A stretch of DNA of 64,000 bases, taken from contig CAXXLQ010000004.1 of assembly GCA_963668695.2 (NCBI GenBank), positions 2,624,001-2,688,000 on the forward strand, in the 5' to 3' direction. Position numbers and translations under genes: made by a program. How positions within the stretch are numbered: the first letter of the stretch is position 1; each line of letters starts with the position of its first letter. Positions 8,621 to 34,244 of the stretch are shown here, piece by piece. Under the pieces are notes generated by a model that saw nothing but the letters and a program-made list of their open reading frames with translations, did not search any database and had not been told where the DNA came from. The stretch is from Vicinamibacteria bacterium (lineage in GTDB: Bacteria; Acidobacteriota; Vicinamibacteria; Marinacidobacterales; Marinacidobacteraceae).

Positions 8621-8642
8621 GCGCCGGGGATCGCGCCGGCTC

Positions 8643-8696
8643 GGGAACGCCGGTCTTCAGACCGGCACCGCCGCCCGCAGGGCGGCGAGACGCGAA
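8643..8696 (+). repeat. REP-like double-hairpin repeat, empty form
   Basis: GGGAACGCCGGTCTTCAGACCGGCA followed by a second hairpin CGCCGCCCGCAGGGCGGCG; homologs elsewhere in the window. Confidence 0.75.
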
Positions 8697-8730: not shown

Positions 8731-8909
8731 CAGCCTGTGGATAAAGTGGCGTGAGCGCCGAGAGCGGTGAGGCGCCCGGCTGACAAGGCGCGCGAGGGAG
8801 GAATACCGGGTGTATTTCGACCGAAGCGCAACGATGAACGACGCGAAGCGGAGTGTTTCAGCCGGGATGGATCGCCGCTCGAACGCCGCGAGACTTTGTC
8901 CACAGGCTG
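8731..8909 (+). mobile_element. 179-bp MITE-like element, empty reference copy
   Basis: TIRs CAGCCTGTGGATAAAGT / ACTTTGTCCACAGGCTG (16/17 match), TTAA on both flanks, no coding capacity, homologous copies elsewhere. Confidence 0.85.
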
Positions 8910-16358: not shown

Positions 16359-17237
16359 ATGCTTCGTCTGGCGATCCTGACCACCCTCCTGGCAATGATC
16401 CAGGCTGCTCCCGTCGGCGGTACCGAGGAGCCGAAACGGCGCCTACCCGATGTCCAGCCGGGCGAACCCACCGAGCCGCCCCGTTCATCGGATGGGGACA
16501 GTTCCTGGGAGATCCAGTTCGCCGGCCACGGTGGGCTTGCCGGGCTGATCTCGCGTGGAGAGGTCAGGCTTCTGATAGCGAGTGCCGCGAGCCCGGTCGA
16601 CGAGACCGTGGGCTACTCCCGCGAGGGGAGCTGGGGCGCCGGCCTGCGGGTGATTCGGGGAGGGTGGGGCCTCGAGGTCCAGCATCACCGCGTTGCCGGA
16701 CGGGGCTTCATGCCGGCCGCGATGGTGCGCGAAACCAATTGGCGCGGCGCGCAGGAACTGGCACTCACGGACTCAGCAAACGACCTCTTGAGCGCGTTTG
16801 CCGTCCGGGAGTTCTCCCTCCGCGATGAGCGGGTCAGGTTCTATCTGGCCGCGGGCGCCGGGTACCTGCTGATGGGAGGGGATTCCGGCCGGCTGGCGGT
16901 GAACGACATCCCGCCCGGGATTTCCGGAGCCTACGACTTCGGCGGGGAGTCCTCCGACGCCTCTATCGAGGTGGTCGGGGGTGACTTCCGCGCAGACCGC
17001 GGTGTCGCGATCTTCGGCGGTTCGCTGGGCCTCACTCTGAGGATGGGACGGATGTTCCTGCGCCCGCGGCTTGATGCGTTCGTCGGGCGGGCGCGGGATA
17101 CCGAGGAGAGTTGGGACATGCGGTTCACCTTCCCCGAGCGCGAGGTACCTGGCGGGGACACGATGACGCTCCACACCAGCGTTCGACCGAGGTTCCTGTT
17201 CTTCAGCGTGGATGTCGGCTGGTCGGTGGGAAGGTAG
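16359..17237 (+). CDS. Hypothetical exported protein, possible outer-membrane beta-barrel (paralog of the previous gene)
   Basis: GGAGG RBS, signal peptide, shared motifs WG(A/V)GxR, GSLG, LRPR(V/L)D, D(I/V)G. Confidence 0.6.
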   Translation: MLRLAILTTLLAMIQAAPVGGTEEPKRRLPDVQPGEPTEPPRSSDGDSSWEIQFAGHGGLAGLISRGEVRLLIASAASPVDETVGYSREGSWGAGLRVIRGGWGLEVQHHRVAGRGFMPAAMVRETNWRGAQELALTDSANDLLSAFAVREFSLRDERVRFYLAAGAGYLLMGGDSGRLAVNDIPPGISGAYDFGGESSDASIEVVGGDFRADRGVAIFGGSLGLTLRMGRMFLRPRLDAFVGRARDTEESWDMRFTFPEREVPGGDTMTLHTSVRPRFLFFSVDVGWSVGR

Positions 17238-17247
17238 CGAAATAGGG

Positions 17248-18336
17248 GTGCCCCGCAAGAGGCGGGTGATTTCCGCGCGGCTCCTTTCGTATGCCGCTGT
17301 GGTCGCTTTGGTCGCGTCGCCTCTGCAGGCGTACCTCTTCTTCTCCGACACCGGCCGGCTGTGGGTGATGTCTTCGGAGCGGGCTGTCCGGTGGGAAAGA
17401 GACGCGTTTCCGCTGCGATTCCGCATTCTGGATACGGGCAACCTCCCCGAGTACGGGAACCTGACCCGCGAGAAATGGCGTGAGATCGTCCGAGCGGGAT
17501 TCGGCGCCTGGACCGCTGTCGAGACGGCGGACATCGGCATCGTTCTCGAAGACCTCCACATTGCTTCCATCCGGTCCGACGGGTCGGACAGGATCAACAC
17601 CATCGGGTTCGAGGTCGCTGAGGACCGCGGCTACCCGGCGTCCGCACTTTGGATTTACAGGGATGGCCGGATGCTCGAATGCGACATCCATCTTGATCCG
17701 ACGATCTTCGACAACTGGCCGCGAGATGATCCAGCGGTGCAGGAGTGGGCGGCTTACTTTCTCGAGGAGGTGGTCGCGCACGAGATGGGACACTGTCTAG
17801 GTCTGACTCACGCACCTGCAAACCCCGTTTGGCTCGGGCAAAGCGCAAACTCGGCGAACTGGCCTCCGGGTTTCCTTCCCGAGACGCTCGCCGGTCTTTC
17901 CTCCGACCCGCAGATGTCCATTGCCGCCAGCTACGGCGTCCCCCGACTGATGCCTGACGATCGGATCGGGGTGTCTCTCCTGTATCCGGCGCCCGGGTTC
18001 CTCGAGGAGCGCGGCTCCATCGGCGGGCGCGTCGCGTTTGCTGATGGTACGCCGGCAGCTTTTGTGTATGTCCAGGCGGTGGACTATGCCGCCGGGACGG
18101 CGGTCTTCGGTCCGGGCGCCTTCGCCGACGAACGGGGCCAGTTCCGAGTCGAGGGACTACCCCCCGGGCCGGTTCATCTCTGGGTGCGCCCGACCCGATT
18201 CTTCCCGGAGCAACCCGCCTTTCAGGATGCCGGAACGGCGGACATCCTGGACGAACACCGGTGGTTTTCCGTCCGGGCCGGGGTCGTGACCATCGTGCCG
18301 GAAATCACGGTGACCGCCGGCCGGAGCCCTCCATGA
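17248..18336 (+). CDS. Matrixin-like (metzincin) metalloprotease with a C-terminal carboxypeptidase-regulatory-like domain
   Basis: HEMGHCLGLTH zinc motif, Met-turn (PQMS), DDRIG; signal peptide; start approximate. Confidence 0.8.
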   Translation: MPRKRRVISARLLSYAAVVALVASPLQAYLFFSDTGRLWVMSSERAVRWERDAFPLRFRILDTGNLPEYGNLTREKWREIVRAGFGAWTAVETADIGIVLEDLHIASIRSDGSDRINTIGFEVAEDRGYPASALWIYRDGRMLECDIHLDPTIFDNWPRDDPAVQEWAAYFLEEVVAHEMGHCLGLTHAPANPVWLGQSANSANWPPGFLPETLAGLSSDPQMSIAASYGVPRLMPDDRIGVSLLYPAPGFLEERGSIGGRVAFADGTPAAFVYVQAVDYAAGTAVFGPGAFADERGQFRVEGLPPGPVHLWVRPTRFFPEQPAFQDAGTADILDEHRWFSVRAGVVTIVPEITVTAGRSPP

Positions 18337-19283
18337 GGACAGCGCCGGCGCTGGCGTTGCTGGGGTTCCTGCTGGCCACTGCCGGATGCGGCTCCCCGAC
18401 GGCCCCGCCCGGTCGCTGGATTCCAGAGCCGTCACCGCCGCCGCCAGAGCGCTTCCTTGTACGGCTCGATGGAGTGTTCTATGCGCCTGGGTCGGTGATC
18501 GAATTGAGTCCCGGCAACCCGATCGAGATCGAGGTACTCGTTTATCCGAACACGAGTTTCCCGTTGGAAGGGCCCACTCCGAACTGGGCCGGCTTCGTCG
18601 TGGAGACCGACGCGCCGGCGGAGAGGCTCTTGATTCGCCGGTCGATTGCGTGGCGAGAGGTCTATGAGCGAGAGGACCCGGAGACGGGCGACCCGACGCA
18701 GGTAGGCGTAGCCGTCGGGATAATCCGCCTCGAAGCTCTCGAGTCAGGTGAAACCACGGATCCCGGAGAAGTCCACGAAGTCCGGATCGGCGCCCCGGCC
18801 GGCGGTTTCCCGGGCCCGCCCGAGATCGAGGTGGATACCACCCCGCTGCGGTTCCGGGTGGTCGCGCCGAGCCCCGCGATCTCGTGCGACGAACTGACCC
18901 TGACGGCTGCACCGGACCACCGATCAGGCGAGCCCGGAGGTTTCTTCCGGCGTCTGTTCGAGGACGCCGGGGAGTTCAATTCCGGAAGATTCACGCTCCG
19001 GGCGCCCGGCTTCGGGGCCGGGCTGCGTCTTGTCGCTCCTTACCGGTTCCGGGGTGGCGAGTTAACGGACACCGAGTGGGATCCCTCGGCGCAGCGGAAG
19101 ACGGACGAGATCGGATTTCCCTTCCTCTTCGCGGCGGGAATGAATCTGCGAGCGGTGGAAGGCGGCTTCGAGCAGACGTTCGAGCTCGGATGGTTCGACG
19201 AGCTGGAACTCGCAGCGCACGCGCCCGGGTGTGAACCCCGCCGCCTCCGCTGCGACACGCGCGGAAGCTGTTTCATGGACTGA
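18333..19283 (+). CDS. Hypothetical lipoprotein
   Basis: ATGA overlap with the previous gene; MRTAPALALLGFLLATAGC lipobox. Confidence 0.65.
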   Translation: MRTAPALALLGFLLATAGCGSPTAPPGRWIPEPSPPPPERFLVRLDGVFYAPGSVIELSPGNPIEIEVLVYPNTSFPLEGPTPNWAGFVVETDAPAERLLIRRSIAWREVYEREDPETGDPTQVGVAVGIIRLEALESGETTDPGEVHEVRIGAPAGGFPGPPEIEVDTTPLRFRVVAPSPAISCDELTLTAAPDHRSGEPGGFFRRLFEDAGEFNSGRFTLRAPGFGAGLRLVAPYRFRGGELTDTEWDPSAQRKTDEIGFPFLFAAGMNLRAVEGGFEQTFELGWFDELELAAHAPGCEPRRLRCDTRGSCFMD

Positions 19284-25287: not shown

Positions 25288-25485
25288 CAGCCGGCAGACA
25301 ACGTCACGCGGTGTTCGACCGGCGATGCATCCCGGCTGAACCGCGCCGCTTCGCGTCGCTCATCGTTGCGCTCCGGTCGAAAGACACGGGGTATTCCTCC
25401 CTTGCGCGCCTTGTCAGCCGGGCGCCTCACCGGCCAGTTCTCCCGGTGGGGGCCTCGGCACTCGCGCCACCTTGTCCACCGGCTA
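25288..25485 (-). mobile_element. MITE-like element (198 bp = 179+19) between antitoxin and toxin
   Basis: Reverse complement of the 8731 element with one micro-insert at 25434; flanked by TTAG and CTAG. Confidence 0.85.
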
Positions 25486-25832: not shown

Positions 25833-25873
25833 TGCCGGCCAGAGGCCGGCCCAGTTCTCCCGGTGGGGGCTCC
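25833..25873 (-). repeat. REP-like repeat with an 18-nt micro-insert at a second internal site
   Basis: TGCCGGCCAGAGGCCGGC|CCAGTTCTCCCGGTGGGG|GCTCC. Confidence 0.7.
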
Positions 25874-28679: not shown

Positions 28680-29837
28680 TGCCGCCGTGTGGTGGGAGCG
28701 GCTCACTCTTCAGGAGGTGTCCCTCGCCGGGTTCGTCCGGAGCGTGGGACATCGCGAACCACCGGCGCTCGACAGGATCCTGATCGCGCGGGCGCGGCAG
28801 TGCCCGCTGGTCCTGCTGCTGGACGAGGCGCATACGCTCGACCTCGGGCGGGTTTAGCAGCCGGTGATGAAACCCACGCGGCCCAGTTCTCCCGGTGGGG
28901 GCTCGGCCGGCGATCCATCCCGGCCAAACAACCGGTGATGAAACCCACGCGGCCCAGTTCTCCCGGTGGGGGCTCGGCCGGCGATCCATCCCGGCCAAAC
29001 AACCGGTGATGAAACCCTCGCGGCACCAGTTCTCCCGGTGGGGGCTCACGTGGGTTCCATCCATCCCGGCTGAACCGCGTCGCTGCGCGCCGCTCATCGT
29101 TGCGTTTCGGTTGGAATACACGCGGTATTCCTCCCTCACGCGCCTTGTCAGCCGGGCCCCCACCGGGAGGACTGGCCCCACCGGGAGAACTGGGCCTCGC
29201 CCCCACCGGGAGAACTGGCCGACCTCGGCGCTCACGTGGGTTCCACCACCGGCTGTTCACCGCGTCGCTTCGCGCCGCTCATCGTTGCGTTTCGGTCGGA
29301 ATACACGCGGTATTCCTCCCTCACGCGCCTTGTCAGCCGGGCCCCCACCGGGAGAACTGGGCCTCGCCCCCACCGGGAGAACTGGGCCTCGCCCCCACCG
29401 GGAGAACTGGCCGACCTCGGCGCTCACGTGGGTTCCACCACCGGCTGTTCACCGCGTCGCTGCGCGCCGCTCATCGTTGCGTTTCGGTCGGAATACACGC
29501 GGTATTCCTCCCTCACGCGCCTTGTCAGCCGGGCCCCCACCGGGAGGACTGGCCCCACCGGGAGAACTGGGCCTCGCCCCCACCGGGAGAACTGGCCAGC
29601 CTCGGCGCTCACGTGGGTTCCACCACCGGCTGCTAGCTGAACGCGAGCCAAATGGTGGGACGTGACCTTCCCTTCCTGCTCGTGCTCGCCGGGACGCCCA
29701 ACCTGGAGACGCACCTGAACCGGTTGGGCGCCTCGTGCTGGAGTCGCGCCGAACGCCCGCGTATCGGGACGCTGGATGGGAACGCCACCGCCCTGGCTTT
29801 CCGGGAGCCGTTCCGGCCCGTAGCCGCCGTCCTCTGA
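28680..29837 (+). pseudogene. AAA+ ATPase gene remnant interrupted by a MITE array
   Basis: Walker B PLVLLLDEAHTLD before the array; the same frame resumes after it as LNASQMVGRDLPFLLVLAGTPNL; no Walker A or start visible. Confidence 0.7.
28858..29632 (-). mobile_element. Tandemly amplified MITE array (71-bp end units plus three ~185-190-bp units) with about 12 micro-inserts
   Basis: Ends CAGCCGGTGATGAAACCC / GGGTTCCACCACCGGCTG flanked by TTAG and CTAG; 71-bp period at 28858, 28929, 29000. Confidence 0.8.
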
Positions 29838-30699: not shown

Positions 30700-30878
30700 C
30701 AGCCGGTGGTGGAACCCGGGTGAGCGCCGAGGCCGGTGAGGCGCCCGGCTGACAAGGCGCGTGAGGGAGGAATACCGGGTGTATTTCGACCGAAACGCAA
30801 CGCAGAGCGCCGCAAGGCGGCGCGGTTCAGGCGGGATGGATCGCCGCTCGAACGCCGCCTGGGTTTCCCCACAGGCTG
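30700..30878 (+). mobile_element. 179-bp MITE-like element, second empty copy
   Basis: Collinear with 8731..8909, same length; TAA...TTA flanks; variant TIRs. Confidence 0.85.
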
Positions 30879-31490: not shown

Positions 31491-31968
31491 CAGCCGGTGG
31501 TGGAACCCGGGTGAGCGCCGAGGCGGGCGAGACGCCCGGCTGACCAGGCGCGTGAGGGAGGAGCCCCCACCGGGAGAACTGGCCCGGGTGTATTTCGACC
31601 GAAACGCAACACAGAACGGAGCGCAGCGGAGTGGGTAACAGCCGGTGGTGGAACCCGGGTGAGTGCCGGGTCCGGCGAGGCGCCCGGCTGACCAGGCGCG
31701 TGAGGGAGGAGCCCCCACCGGGAGAACTGGGCCGCGCGGGTTTCATTACCGGCTGTTTGGCCGGGATGGATCGCCGGCCGAGCCCCCACCGGGAGAACTG
31801 GGCCGCGCGGGTTTCATTACCGGCTGTTTGGCCGGGATGGATCGCCGGCCGAGCCCCCACCGGGAGAACTGGGCCGCTTGGGTTCCACTACCGGCTGTTT
31901 GGCCGGGATGGATCGCCGGCCGAGCCCCCACCGGGAGAACTGGGCCGCCTGGGTTTCGCCACCGGTTG
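31491..31968 (+). mobile_element. Nested/tandem MITE array with 71-bp repeats and five micro-inserts
   Basis: Two left ends (31491, 31639); 71-bp period at 31711, 31782, 31853, 31924. Confidence 0.8.
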
Positions 31969-33993: not shown

Positions 33994-34244
33994 CAGCCTG
34001 TGGATAAAGTGGCGTGAGCGCCGAGAGCGGCGAGGCCCAGTTCTCCCGGTGGGGCCAGTTCTCCCGGTGGGGGCCCGGCTGACAAGGCGTGCGAGGGAGG
34101 AGCCCCCACCGGGAGAACTGGCCCGAGTGTCTTTCGACCGAAGCGCAACGATGAGCGACGGGAAACGGCGCGGTTCAGCCGGGATGGATCGCCGCTCGAG
34201 CCCCCACCGGGAGAACTGGGCCGCGGCACTTTGTTCACAGGTTG
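33994..34244 (+). mobile_element. MITE-like element with four 18-nt micro-inserts (251 bp)
   Basis: Aligns gap-free to 8731..8909 apart from inserts at 34037, 34055, 34104 and 34202. Confidence 0.88.

Follow-up and report, generated by a model that had tools for sequence, protein, structure and literature searches.

Positions 33994 to 34244 of the window analyzed here, a 64,000-nucleotide stretch of contig CAXXLQ010000004.1 (positions 2,624,001 to 2,688,000, forward strand) from the Vicinamibacteria bacterium assembly GCA_963668695.2, hold a MITE (miniature inverted-repeat transposable element) with four copies of a short repeated unit that we call U. On balance, we favor the reading that this element is an IS5-type hairpin MITE carrying four copies of a separate micro-cassette, which would spread as a short templated patch copied from existing copies. 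U is independent of the MITE, the bases next to it are written together with it, its turnover at orthologous positions is fast, and the empty state of the sites that it occupies is the older one. Throughout, U stands for the 18-mer CCAGTTCTCCCGGTGGGG, rcU for its reverse complement, and [U] for one unit in slot notation. G000 is the assembly containing the window (4.1 Mb, 67% G+C, 91.7% complete, four contigs of which C1, C3, and C4 are referred to below), while G001, G004, G007, G008, G009, G010, G012, and G014 are genomes of sister species.

The filled copy, its occupied slots, and the empty copies with which it was compared are the following:

33994 to 34244, plus strand: filled hairpin MITE of 251 bp at a TTAG/TTAA site and a gene end, delimited by alignment and by empty orthologous sites.
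34037 to 34054 and 34055 to 34072, plus strand: slot s1, two head-to-tail U between GAGGC and GCCCGG (alignment).
34102 to 34122, minus strand: slot s2, GC + rcU (34104 to 34121) + C in place of ATA (alignment).
34200 to 34219, minus strand: slot s3, GC + rcU (34202 to 34219) in place of AC (alignment).
8731 to 8909, plus strand: empty 179-bp MITE copy with TTAA on either side (alignment).
30700 to 30878, plus strand: second empty MITE copy, whose orthologous site is without a MITE in G001 and G004 (orthologue comparison).

The first-pass annotation, made by a model from the letters of the sequence, had read the filled copy as 179 bp plus exactly four 18-nucleotide units. A MAFFT alignment of 33994 to 34244 against 8731 to 8909 (251 columns) reproduces this reading computationally, with exactly three gaps of 36, 18, and 18 columns and identity at 161 of the 179 aligned backbone columns. 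The GC described beside the units is present as well, with GC...C in the filled copy facing AT...A in the empty one at site 2 and GC facing AC at site 3, and the second empty copy at 30700 to 30878 reads like the first at both sites. Folded as single strands, the filled copy reaches −95.7 kcal/mol and the empty copy −49.1 kcal/mol, the former gaining long extra stems because its forward U units pair with its reverse ones.

These copies are paralogues, however, and not the before and after states of one locus. The sequences on either side of 33994 to 34244 lie directly next to each other in G001 (95% to 96% identity), G004, and G008, where the site reads GCGTTAG without any MITE, so that the G000 lineage gained the MITE at 33994 recently. 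Its four U may well have arrived inside a MITE that was already filled, and its slot pattern (double s1, s2, and s3) is common to 7 of the 148 full-length MITEs that we compared. In Logan contigs from four runs of four studies, the MITE is present at this locus in all four, and the unique flanks of the locus are identical between the studies; these contigs end at 34021 and resume at 34167 to 34226, i.e., they break within the MITE, and the U state is not covered. Scanning metagenomes for a 30-base flank of this locus yielded no matches.

U is highly repeated in G000, with 1,288 exact copies in 4.1 Mb, 1,566 copies when up to one mismatch is allowed (82% of them exact), and 1,631 with up to two. 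The commonest variant, T6C, accounts for 156 copies and every other variant for at most 26. The window alone holds 27 matches with up to three mismatches, 21 of them exact, compared to 0.14 expected. Copies are found chromosome-wide with forward and reverse orientations balanced in all 200-kb bins, which rules out a replication-strand bias. No stop codon occurs in any of the six frames of U, and no hairpin forms within U alone. The ends of U do not vary between the 83 distinct contexts, in which the flanking base is G at −2 in 70%, either G or C at −1, then G at +1 in 80% and C at +2 in 73%. U does not look like a classical transposable element: a constant target-site duplication and terminal inverted repeats are absent, and an insertion overwrites one to three bases, for a net gain that amounts to 18 or 19 bases from slot to slot. 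The idea that U might be two transposon ends left after an excision was also dropped, given that, by eye, neither half of U is an inverted copy of the other. We note, again by eye, that the 7-mer CCGGTGG (CAGCCGGTGGTGG in many copies) is common to U (34037 to 34054) and the MITE terminus (33994 to 34011), an overlap that may be due to chance.

With up to one mismatch allowed, all 15 other species of the genus carry U (8 to 776 copies each), as do two of the three other genera of the family, and the sequence of U is identical across genera. Counted by assembly, U is present in 17 of 18 independently assembled family genomes besides G000 and in records of several submitters, and at the same threshold it is found in none of 12 genomes from two other families of the same order. 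A scan of 185,579 species genomes gave 112 matching stretches, and nearly all of the 84 listed come from metagenome-assembled genomes (MAGs) of Acidobacteria. Exact U elsewhere (L044, L079, and L055) comprises one copy each in the Actinobacteria Georgenia ruanii and Pseudarthrobacter sp. J47, in unrelated contexts and possibly by chance, and an occurrence in a contig of a "Gammaproteobacteria" MAG that may be a binning error, its context being the second repeat family of the clade studied here (family ii, see below).

The MITE that hosts most of these units is present in ca. 650 to 700 copies in G000 and bears hallmarks of such elements, i.e., terminal inverted repeats (CAGCCTGTGG.../...CCACAGGCTG), small size, no open reading frame, and both filled and empty orthologous sites. 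Of the 1,631 U with up to two mismatches, 1,383 lie within MITE-homologous intervals, and 180 of the 248 others are near hallmarks of family ii. For a slot map, the 148 full-length copies were stripped of U and aligned, which revealed five slots on the 179-column backbone, each with one fixed orientation of U, plus three singleton positions:

Slot s4, reference position 37, forward: U in 47 of 148.
Slot s1, reference position 44, forward: U in 44 of 148.
Slot s2, reference position 75, reverse: U in 53 of 148.
Slot s5, reference position 121, forward: U in 16 of 148.
Slot s3, reference position 155, reverse: U in 55 of 148.

Fully empty copies make up 48 of the 148, and slots are occupied in 28 different combinations. 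The parentage of the MITE can be read from one further copy in the window:

25288 to 25484, minus strand: MITE copy with one U (25434 to 25451), whose orthologous site in G001 holds a 1.5-kb IS5-type element.

This G001 element has the MITE termini, measures 1.5 kb, and is flanked by TTAA on both sides (L174:7568-9083; also 17185-18700); the copy at L174:7568-9083 encodes a protein of 484 amino acids with DUF772 (1.8e-16) and DDE_Tnp_1 (1.1e-10) domains. The shared termini together with this transposase identify the parent of the MITE as IS5-type and not as IS630-type. A 4-bp YTAR target duplication is typical of the IS5 group, and TTAA flanks both sides of 8731 to 8909 and of the G001 element, while the copy at 33994 has TTAA on the left, a degenerate right side, and TTAG at the empty site. 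With the 484-residue transposase as a query, no match at E ≤ 1e-20 was found in G000.

U is not confined to this MITE. Family ii consists of repeats of the form GGGAACGCCGG-TC-TTCAGACCGGCA... with a hairpin GCCGGTC-TTCA-GACCGGC, a second, variable hairpin whose stem covaries, and a terminal GAAAC, and it accounts for 277 hits across G000, of which 74 carry U. The hairpins of empty copies are perfect 7-bp stems, and Rfam holds no match for the family. By eye, the hairpin with its GAAAC tail resembles the end of a CRISPR repeat. Two loci in the window represent this type of repeat:

8636 to 8692, plus strand: empty family-ii repeat with the hairpin GCCGGTC-TTCA-GACCGGC, the second hairpin, and GA(G/A)AC.
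25851 to 25868, plus strand: solitary U in a family-ii-type hairpin, GGCCGGC[U]GCTCCAAGCC, with an empty orthologue in G004.

In G004, the orthologue of the latter reads GGCCGGC-GT-TCCAAGCC (GGCCGGCGTTCCAAGCC) without U, and the same outcome, GT replaced by [U]GC, is thus found at two unrelated GGC sites, s3 of the MITE and the family-ii-type hairpin at 25851. Where copy numbers are low, relatives carry U elsewhere in such hairpins, and the U in their MITEs is oriented the opposite way. U has also entered U itself (ccagttctcccgg[U]gcgggg), at no fewer than three different slots in loci of another genus (OZ246946.1), a kind of nesting for which no case was found in G000. In the OZ246946.1 loci L018, L019, L034, L050, and L065, we observed U after the CCCGG of U and also in an older U-like repeat, ccggttctcccggtagggg.

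The clearest insertion into a gene affects mfd of G012 (L122:1206-3017), where rcU lies in frame and adds the six codons for PPPGEL (…GGPPPGELVRP…) with a net gain of exactly 18 bases. Thirteen of 15 orthologues in the genus have mfd without U, including G007 at 93% identity, and mfd of G010 has a 12-base remnant at the place of the G012 insertion. A second candidate, U likewise in frame in coaBC of G010 (L119:1158-2573, adding TSSPGG), was rejected as a clean gene insertion because it falls into a variable loop of low complexity with no clean alignment to G000.

The first-pass annotation had asked whether the GC beside the units is a required target or is co-written with the insert, and had proposed to look for empty copies with GC at sites 2 and 3. 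When slots are written in U's orientation, an empty s2 reads GG-TAT-T and a filled one GG-G[U]GC-T (252 TAT and 272 G[U]GC among 543 sites across G000), and none of the 257 empty states of s2 carries GC (252 TAT, 2 TAC, 2 CAT, and 1 TATT); truncated U are rare at this slot (3 of 543). At s3, 226 empty GGC-GT-T stand against 291 filled GGC[U]GC-T in the main cluster, and the classes listed include no GC-only class, the empties reading GT or AT. Slot s4 changes from CGG-(T/C/G)-G to CGG[U]GC-G and family ii from CGG-T-C to CGG[U]GC-C, each with a net gain of 19 bases, and the step from CGG-T to CGG[U]GC recurs in the TC and TG hairpin variants of family ii, at s4, and inside U in another genus. 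Slot s1 is GGC-GC-C when empty and GGC[U][U]GC-C or GGC[U]GT-C when filled, with plain GGC[U]GCC in only 6 of 206 cases; its [U][U]GC allele occurs 125 times across G000 (75 U+U6C and 50 U+U).

Co-writing is the alternative that these slot tables support, together with the orthologue of 25851 and a switch between ATA and GC[rcU]C seen between haplotypes (see below): GC is no pre-existing target but arrives with U, which replaces the one to three bases next to CGG or GGC. Family ii offers a view of the overwritten base, since filled copies retain the 3′ arm that paired with the lost T (44 with GA compared to 1 with GG), which means that T was overwritten by [U]GC. The same 44 to 1 ratio rules out a 16-base element with a GGC target duplication, which on paper fits the +19 slots and would require a CC hairpin variant. 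Templated synthesis with a short homology arm is a plausible source of U and its GC.

Differences in U state can be observed directly between near-identical duplicates within G000 (C1 and C4:304-421 kb; C3 and C4:3505-3538 kb; C4 13.6-148 kb and the last 130 kb of C4). These duplicates are 97.6% to 99.7% identical over ca. 265 kb (265,395 aligned columns with 1,770 mismatches) and probably represent strain haplotypes, in which case duplicated markers would account for the contamination of 9.34% given for G000. With indel sites realigned, we found eight differences in U state in 6 of 41 MITE intervals: GC versus [U]GT at s1 in three cases, [U]GT versus [U][U]GC at s1 in two, ATA versus GC[rcU]C at s2 in two (in two adjacent partial MITEs), and a deletion of 15 bases within U in one. 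With each change of U, the bases beside it change as well, to the allele typical of the slot.

Gap openings are 4.5 times denser in MITE intervals than in other DNA (3.82 versus 0.84 per kb, p = 2e-11), whereas mismatches are sparser there (4.06 versus 6.77 per kb), and gene conversion over long tracts was rejected on these grounds as the general explanation. In three of the six switching intervals there is no further mismatch, and the change is therefore limited to the cassette and a few adjacent bases. Mismatches reach 8.2 per kb in switching intervals as a whole, compared to 3.0 (Fisher p = 0.005), a difference for which the co-written flanks account in part.

Turnover is also apparent at a cluster of MITE pieces in the window when compared to sister species, and a second cluster also carries U:

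28858 to 29595: cluster of whole and partial MITEs with 12 U, including arrays of U plus 7 bases with a 25-nt period.
31491 to 31968: cluster of MITEs that holds 5 U and tandem 71-nt pieces of the right end; its U state differs in the G001 and G004 orthologues.

Within the latter, G004 has GAC[U][U]GCC where G000 has GAC-GCC. Tandem arrays of MITE pieces were observed at 31713 to 31943 with a period of 71 nt (right end plus U) and at 29158 to 29595 with the 25-nt period, and the copy number of orthologous arrays differs in G001 and G004. Rfam reports no family at gathering score in the window, and its matches to the repeats are at chance level.

How often slots changed state during the descent of the MITE was approached with a backbone phylogeny, as the first-pass annotation had suggested for counting independent gains. 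Backbones that differ at only 1 to 3 of 179 columns can already differ in U state, and in a FastTree phylogeny of the 148 stripped backbones (slot-adjacent columns masked, ca. 140 columns left) the minimum numbers of state changes come close to those of shuffled states (36 versus 40.8 for s4, 29 versus 38.0 for s1, 41 versus 43.6 for s2, 11 versus 15.4 for s5, and 37 versus 44.6 for s3). These counts are upper bounds because the backbone tree is short and weak.

The T6C variant is found 75 times as the second s1 unit and 41 times at s4 but in only 2 of 169 units at s2, 1 of 320 at s3, and 0 of 56 at s5. Being bound to slots in this way, most U must have been inherited or copied within their own slot and not drawn afresh from one pool. 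Insertion into an older empty form and co-writing of GC stand from the initial interpretation, while a single universal template does not agree with the slot-specific [U]GT and T6C alleles. Numbers of U and MITEs are moreover uncoupled between genomes, as judged from a 15-base MITE core and U with up to one mismatch:

G000: 642 MITE cores and 1,566 U.
G008: 391 MITE cores and 692 U.
G010: 104 MITE cores and 15 U (6 of 15 exact).
G014: 28 MITE cores and 87 U.
G009: 42 MITE cores and 121 U.

G010 is a two-contig assembly, and its nearly all-empty MITE family is therefore not an assembly effect. That the units are insertions into an older empty form is borne out by these 104 cores with 15 U, by the 13 of 15 mfd orthologues without U, and by the perfect stems of empty family-ii hairpins.

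Under the reading that we favor, U would enter DNA as a patch of ca. 20 to 21 bases, composed of U followed by GC and sometimes preceded by G, that overwrites one to three bases following CGG or GGC. First landings would be rare, amounting to at least a dozen recurrent slots in two unrelated families of hairpin repeats, U inside U, and one clean in-frame case in a gene. Filled slots would then spread passively by MITE transposition, and slot-specific alleles may be exchanged between copies of the same slot via very short templated patches. G+C-rich hairpin stems would be the sites of copying, by way of either template switching or gene conversion over very short tracts, and no dedicated enzyme would take part. 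In G000, at 91.7% completeness, we found no match to PF00078 (RVT_1), the only model searched for reverse transcriptases, and none to PF01797 (Y1_Tnp) for Y1 transposases or REP-associated tyrosine transposases (RAYTs), a search whose control matched 6 of 14 known genomes.

Several points weigh against this reading. Exact ends in 83 contexts and at least three slots for U inside U in another genus are not expected from template switching driven by loose microhomology and fit a dedicated activity better. That two GGC sites without any relation show the same change from GT to [U]GC points to a rule governing the process and not to founder alleles alone. No conversion tract is visible, as seen from the three of six switching intervals without extra mismatches, and the process may thus be specific to the cassette. 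Each of the haplotype differences may be a gain or a loss, with the MITE cluster at C4:90726 absent from G001 and the C3 loci rearranged there; all duplicate haplotypes come from one metagenome assembly; and the tree behind the state changes is weak at about 140 columns.

The alternative that survives best, possible though on our assessment unlikely, is that U is moved by a dedicated activity such as a site-specific nuclease, recombinase, or polymerase working from a fixed DNA or RNA template, which acts at CGG or GGC (often in hairpin stems) and installs a patch of ca. 20 bases in lineage bursts. It would account well for the constant ends with their G at −2 and GC after U, for the recurring change from CGG-T to CGG[U]GC in family ii, s4, and U itself, for the identity of U across genera, and for the gain of exactly 18 bases in mfd, and the exact fraction of 82% in G000 compared to 6 of 15 in G010 looks like recent bursts versus old relics. 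An analogue may be SDR5, one of the small dispersed repeats (SDRs) of cyanobacteria, which the relevant passage of PMC4390886 describes as inserted at a fixed place of the HIP1 motif. Yet no candidate gene for such an activity was identified, RVT_1 and Y1_Tnp matches were not found in G000 at its level of completeness, and the junctions vary (U is followed by GC, GG, GT, or CC and preceded by nothing, G, C, or A) without any constant target duplication, with the GGC duplication model failing at the hairpin arm. Copying within the same slot is instead what fits the slot-bound T6C and the presence of [U]GT in all five site-1 haplotype differences (three versus GC and two versus [U][U]GC). A more specific form of the idea, which we regard as doubtful, holds that a DNA-writing enzyme of a kind new to bacteria, with a built-in or guide template, cuts after CGG or GGC in hairpin-prone DNA and installs a fixed 20-base patch in lineage-specific bursts, in which case U and SDRs would be traces of a class of micro-elements without proteins of their own.

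It is improbable that U has no mobility of its own and that the slots of founder MITEs were filled once and then passed on by subfamily descent and ordinary recombination. Flanks and variants are slot-specific, 1,383 of 1,631 U sit in MITE-homologous intervals, and the lineage-specific filled MITE at 33994 could derive from a filled master element, given that its pattern recurs in 7 of 148 copies, all of which agrees with such descent. The presence of U in an unrelated repeat, in many further slots of other species, in U itself, and in mfd does not, nor do the uncoupled numbers of U and MITEs, the 28 combinations spread near-randomly on the backbone tree, or the switching of orthologous states without a mismatch excess in MITEs; the family-ii and mfd cases already leave this explanation strained.

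We consider it very improbable that the filled form is ancestral and that empty copies arose by deletion of U: partial loss does occur, as seen in the 15-base deletion inside U between haplotypes and the 3 of 543 truncated U at s2, but between the empty TAT, GT, or T and the filled G..GC there is no repeat to guide a precise deletion, and the perfect 7-bp stems of empty family-ii hairpins, the 104 MITE cores with 15 U genome-wide in G010, and the empty state of 13 of 15 mfd orthologues all contradict it. Least probable of all is that U or the haplotype differences are assembly or sequencing artefacts, a concern raised by the 9.34% contamination of a metagenome assembly whose 33994 locus is covered by k-mer contigs, since U is found in 17 of 18 independent family assemblies from several submitters, each difference involves a complete allele that is known and brings its own flanks, and contigs of four studies agree fully in the unique sequence on either side of the locus.

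Among known repeats, U compares best to the SDRs, of which SDR1 to SDR8 were reportedly described in Nostocaceae, i.e., heterocyst-forming cyanobacteria, by Elhai et al. 2008 (Genome Res 18:1484). The passages concerned with them portray SDRs as ca. 20 bases long and possibly mobile (PMC2884548), SDR5 as a 21-base repeat of unknown function (PMC13756078) whose insertion point lies between the third and fourth base of HIP1 (PMC4390886), and SDR-like repeats as not reported outside Nostocaceae among the HIP1-rich cyanobacterial genomes examined (PMC5861425). Like an SDR, U is a highly repeated, dispersed, non-coding unit of about 20 bases that is present or absent in otherwise matching DNA, including mobile elements; its core of 18 nt, or 20 to 21 nt with the junction bases, is set against ca. 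20 to 27 nt for SDRs. SDRs are also located inside other mobile elements and inside each other.

U also resembles SDR5 in occupying a precise place in a short G+C motif, at GGC^GCC or CGG^. U differs from the SDRs in its phylum (marine and sponge Acidobacteria), its sequence, and its length of 18 compared to 21 to 27 bases, as well as in overwriting one to three bases, bringing GC along, and showing turnover between haplotypes of 99% identity. By analogy, U would work like an SDR, but we do not class it as one: with Acidobacteria as hosts, membership in SDR1 to SDR8 by descent is unlikely. Our literature searches found no paper on a comparable repeat in Acidobacteria.

Other systems share single traits with U. 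BOX elements are built from boxA, a variable number of boxB, and boxC. Those of pneumococci and the bacterial interspersed mosaic elements (BIMEs) of E. coli, both named in PMC3184786, are modular mosaic repeats. The MITE with U is similar in that copies differ in presence and number of short internal modules, including tandem ones, but the modules of BOX and BIMEs do not compare to a unit that is found in itself, in genes, and in two repeat families unrelated to each other, with an orientation set by the slot. Repetitive extragenic palindromic (REP) sequences and REPINs, which according to PMC3116915 are moved by RAYT transposases, are likewise short, G+C-rich, present in hundreds of copies, and often arranged in inverted pairs with long hairpins. 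In contrast, U has no hairpin of its own, and its pairs come from separate slots; G000 showed neither the RAYT gene expected of a REP/REPIN system, by the Y1_Tnp search, nor, by the PF00078 search, the reverse transcriptase gene expected of a retroelement-templated one such as a retron, DGR, group II, or telomerase-like system.

Rickettsia palindromic elements, which PMC3184786 mentions as lying in frame in genes, are matched by U in its lack of stop codons in six frames and in the six codons added to mfd of G012, but they are palindromic and 100 to 150 bases long, and coding insertions of U are rare exceptions. U pairs, which take the fold from −49 to −96 kcal/mol, resemble the outcome of template-switch correction of quasi-palindromes. 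In that process, template switching causes an insertion and nearby substitutions in one step and leaves a more perfect hairpin. It cannot explain the [U]GT allele, the insertion in mfd, or family-ii hairpins that hold only one U.

U is a second, unrelated case of an SDR-like micro-repeat, found in another phylum, and shows that such repeats extend beyond a single cyanobacterial family. The usual account of mobile DNA invokes an enzyme together with the ends that it recognizes, and elements of ca. 20 bases are too small for this account. With more than 1,000 copies, rules of insertion (after CGG or GGC and with GC along), insertions into itself and into a gene, and visible turnover, U offers handles on the mechanism behind such elements. 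Variation inside a MITE need not mean descent by subfamilies, and where genes of these bacteria differ by an 18-base indel, a cassette may have been inserted.

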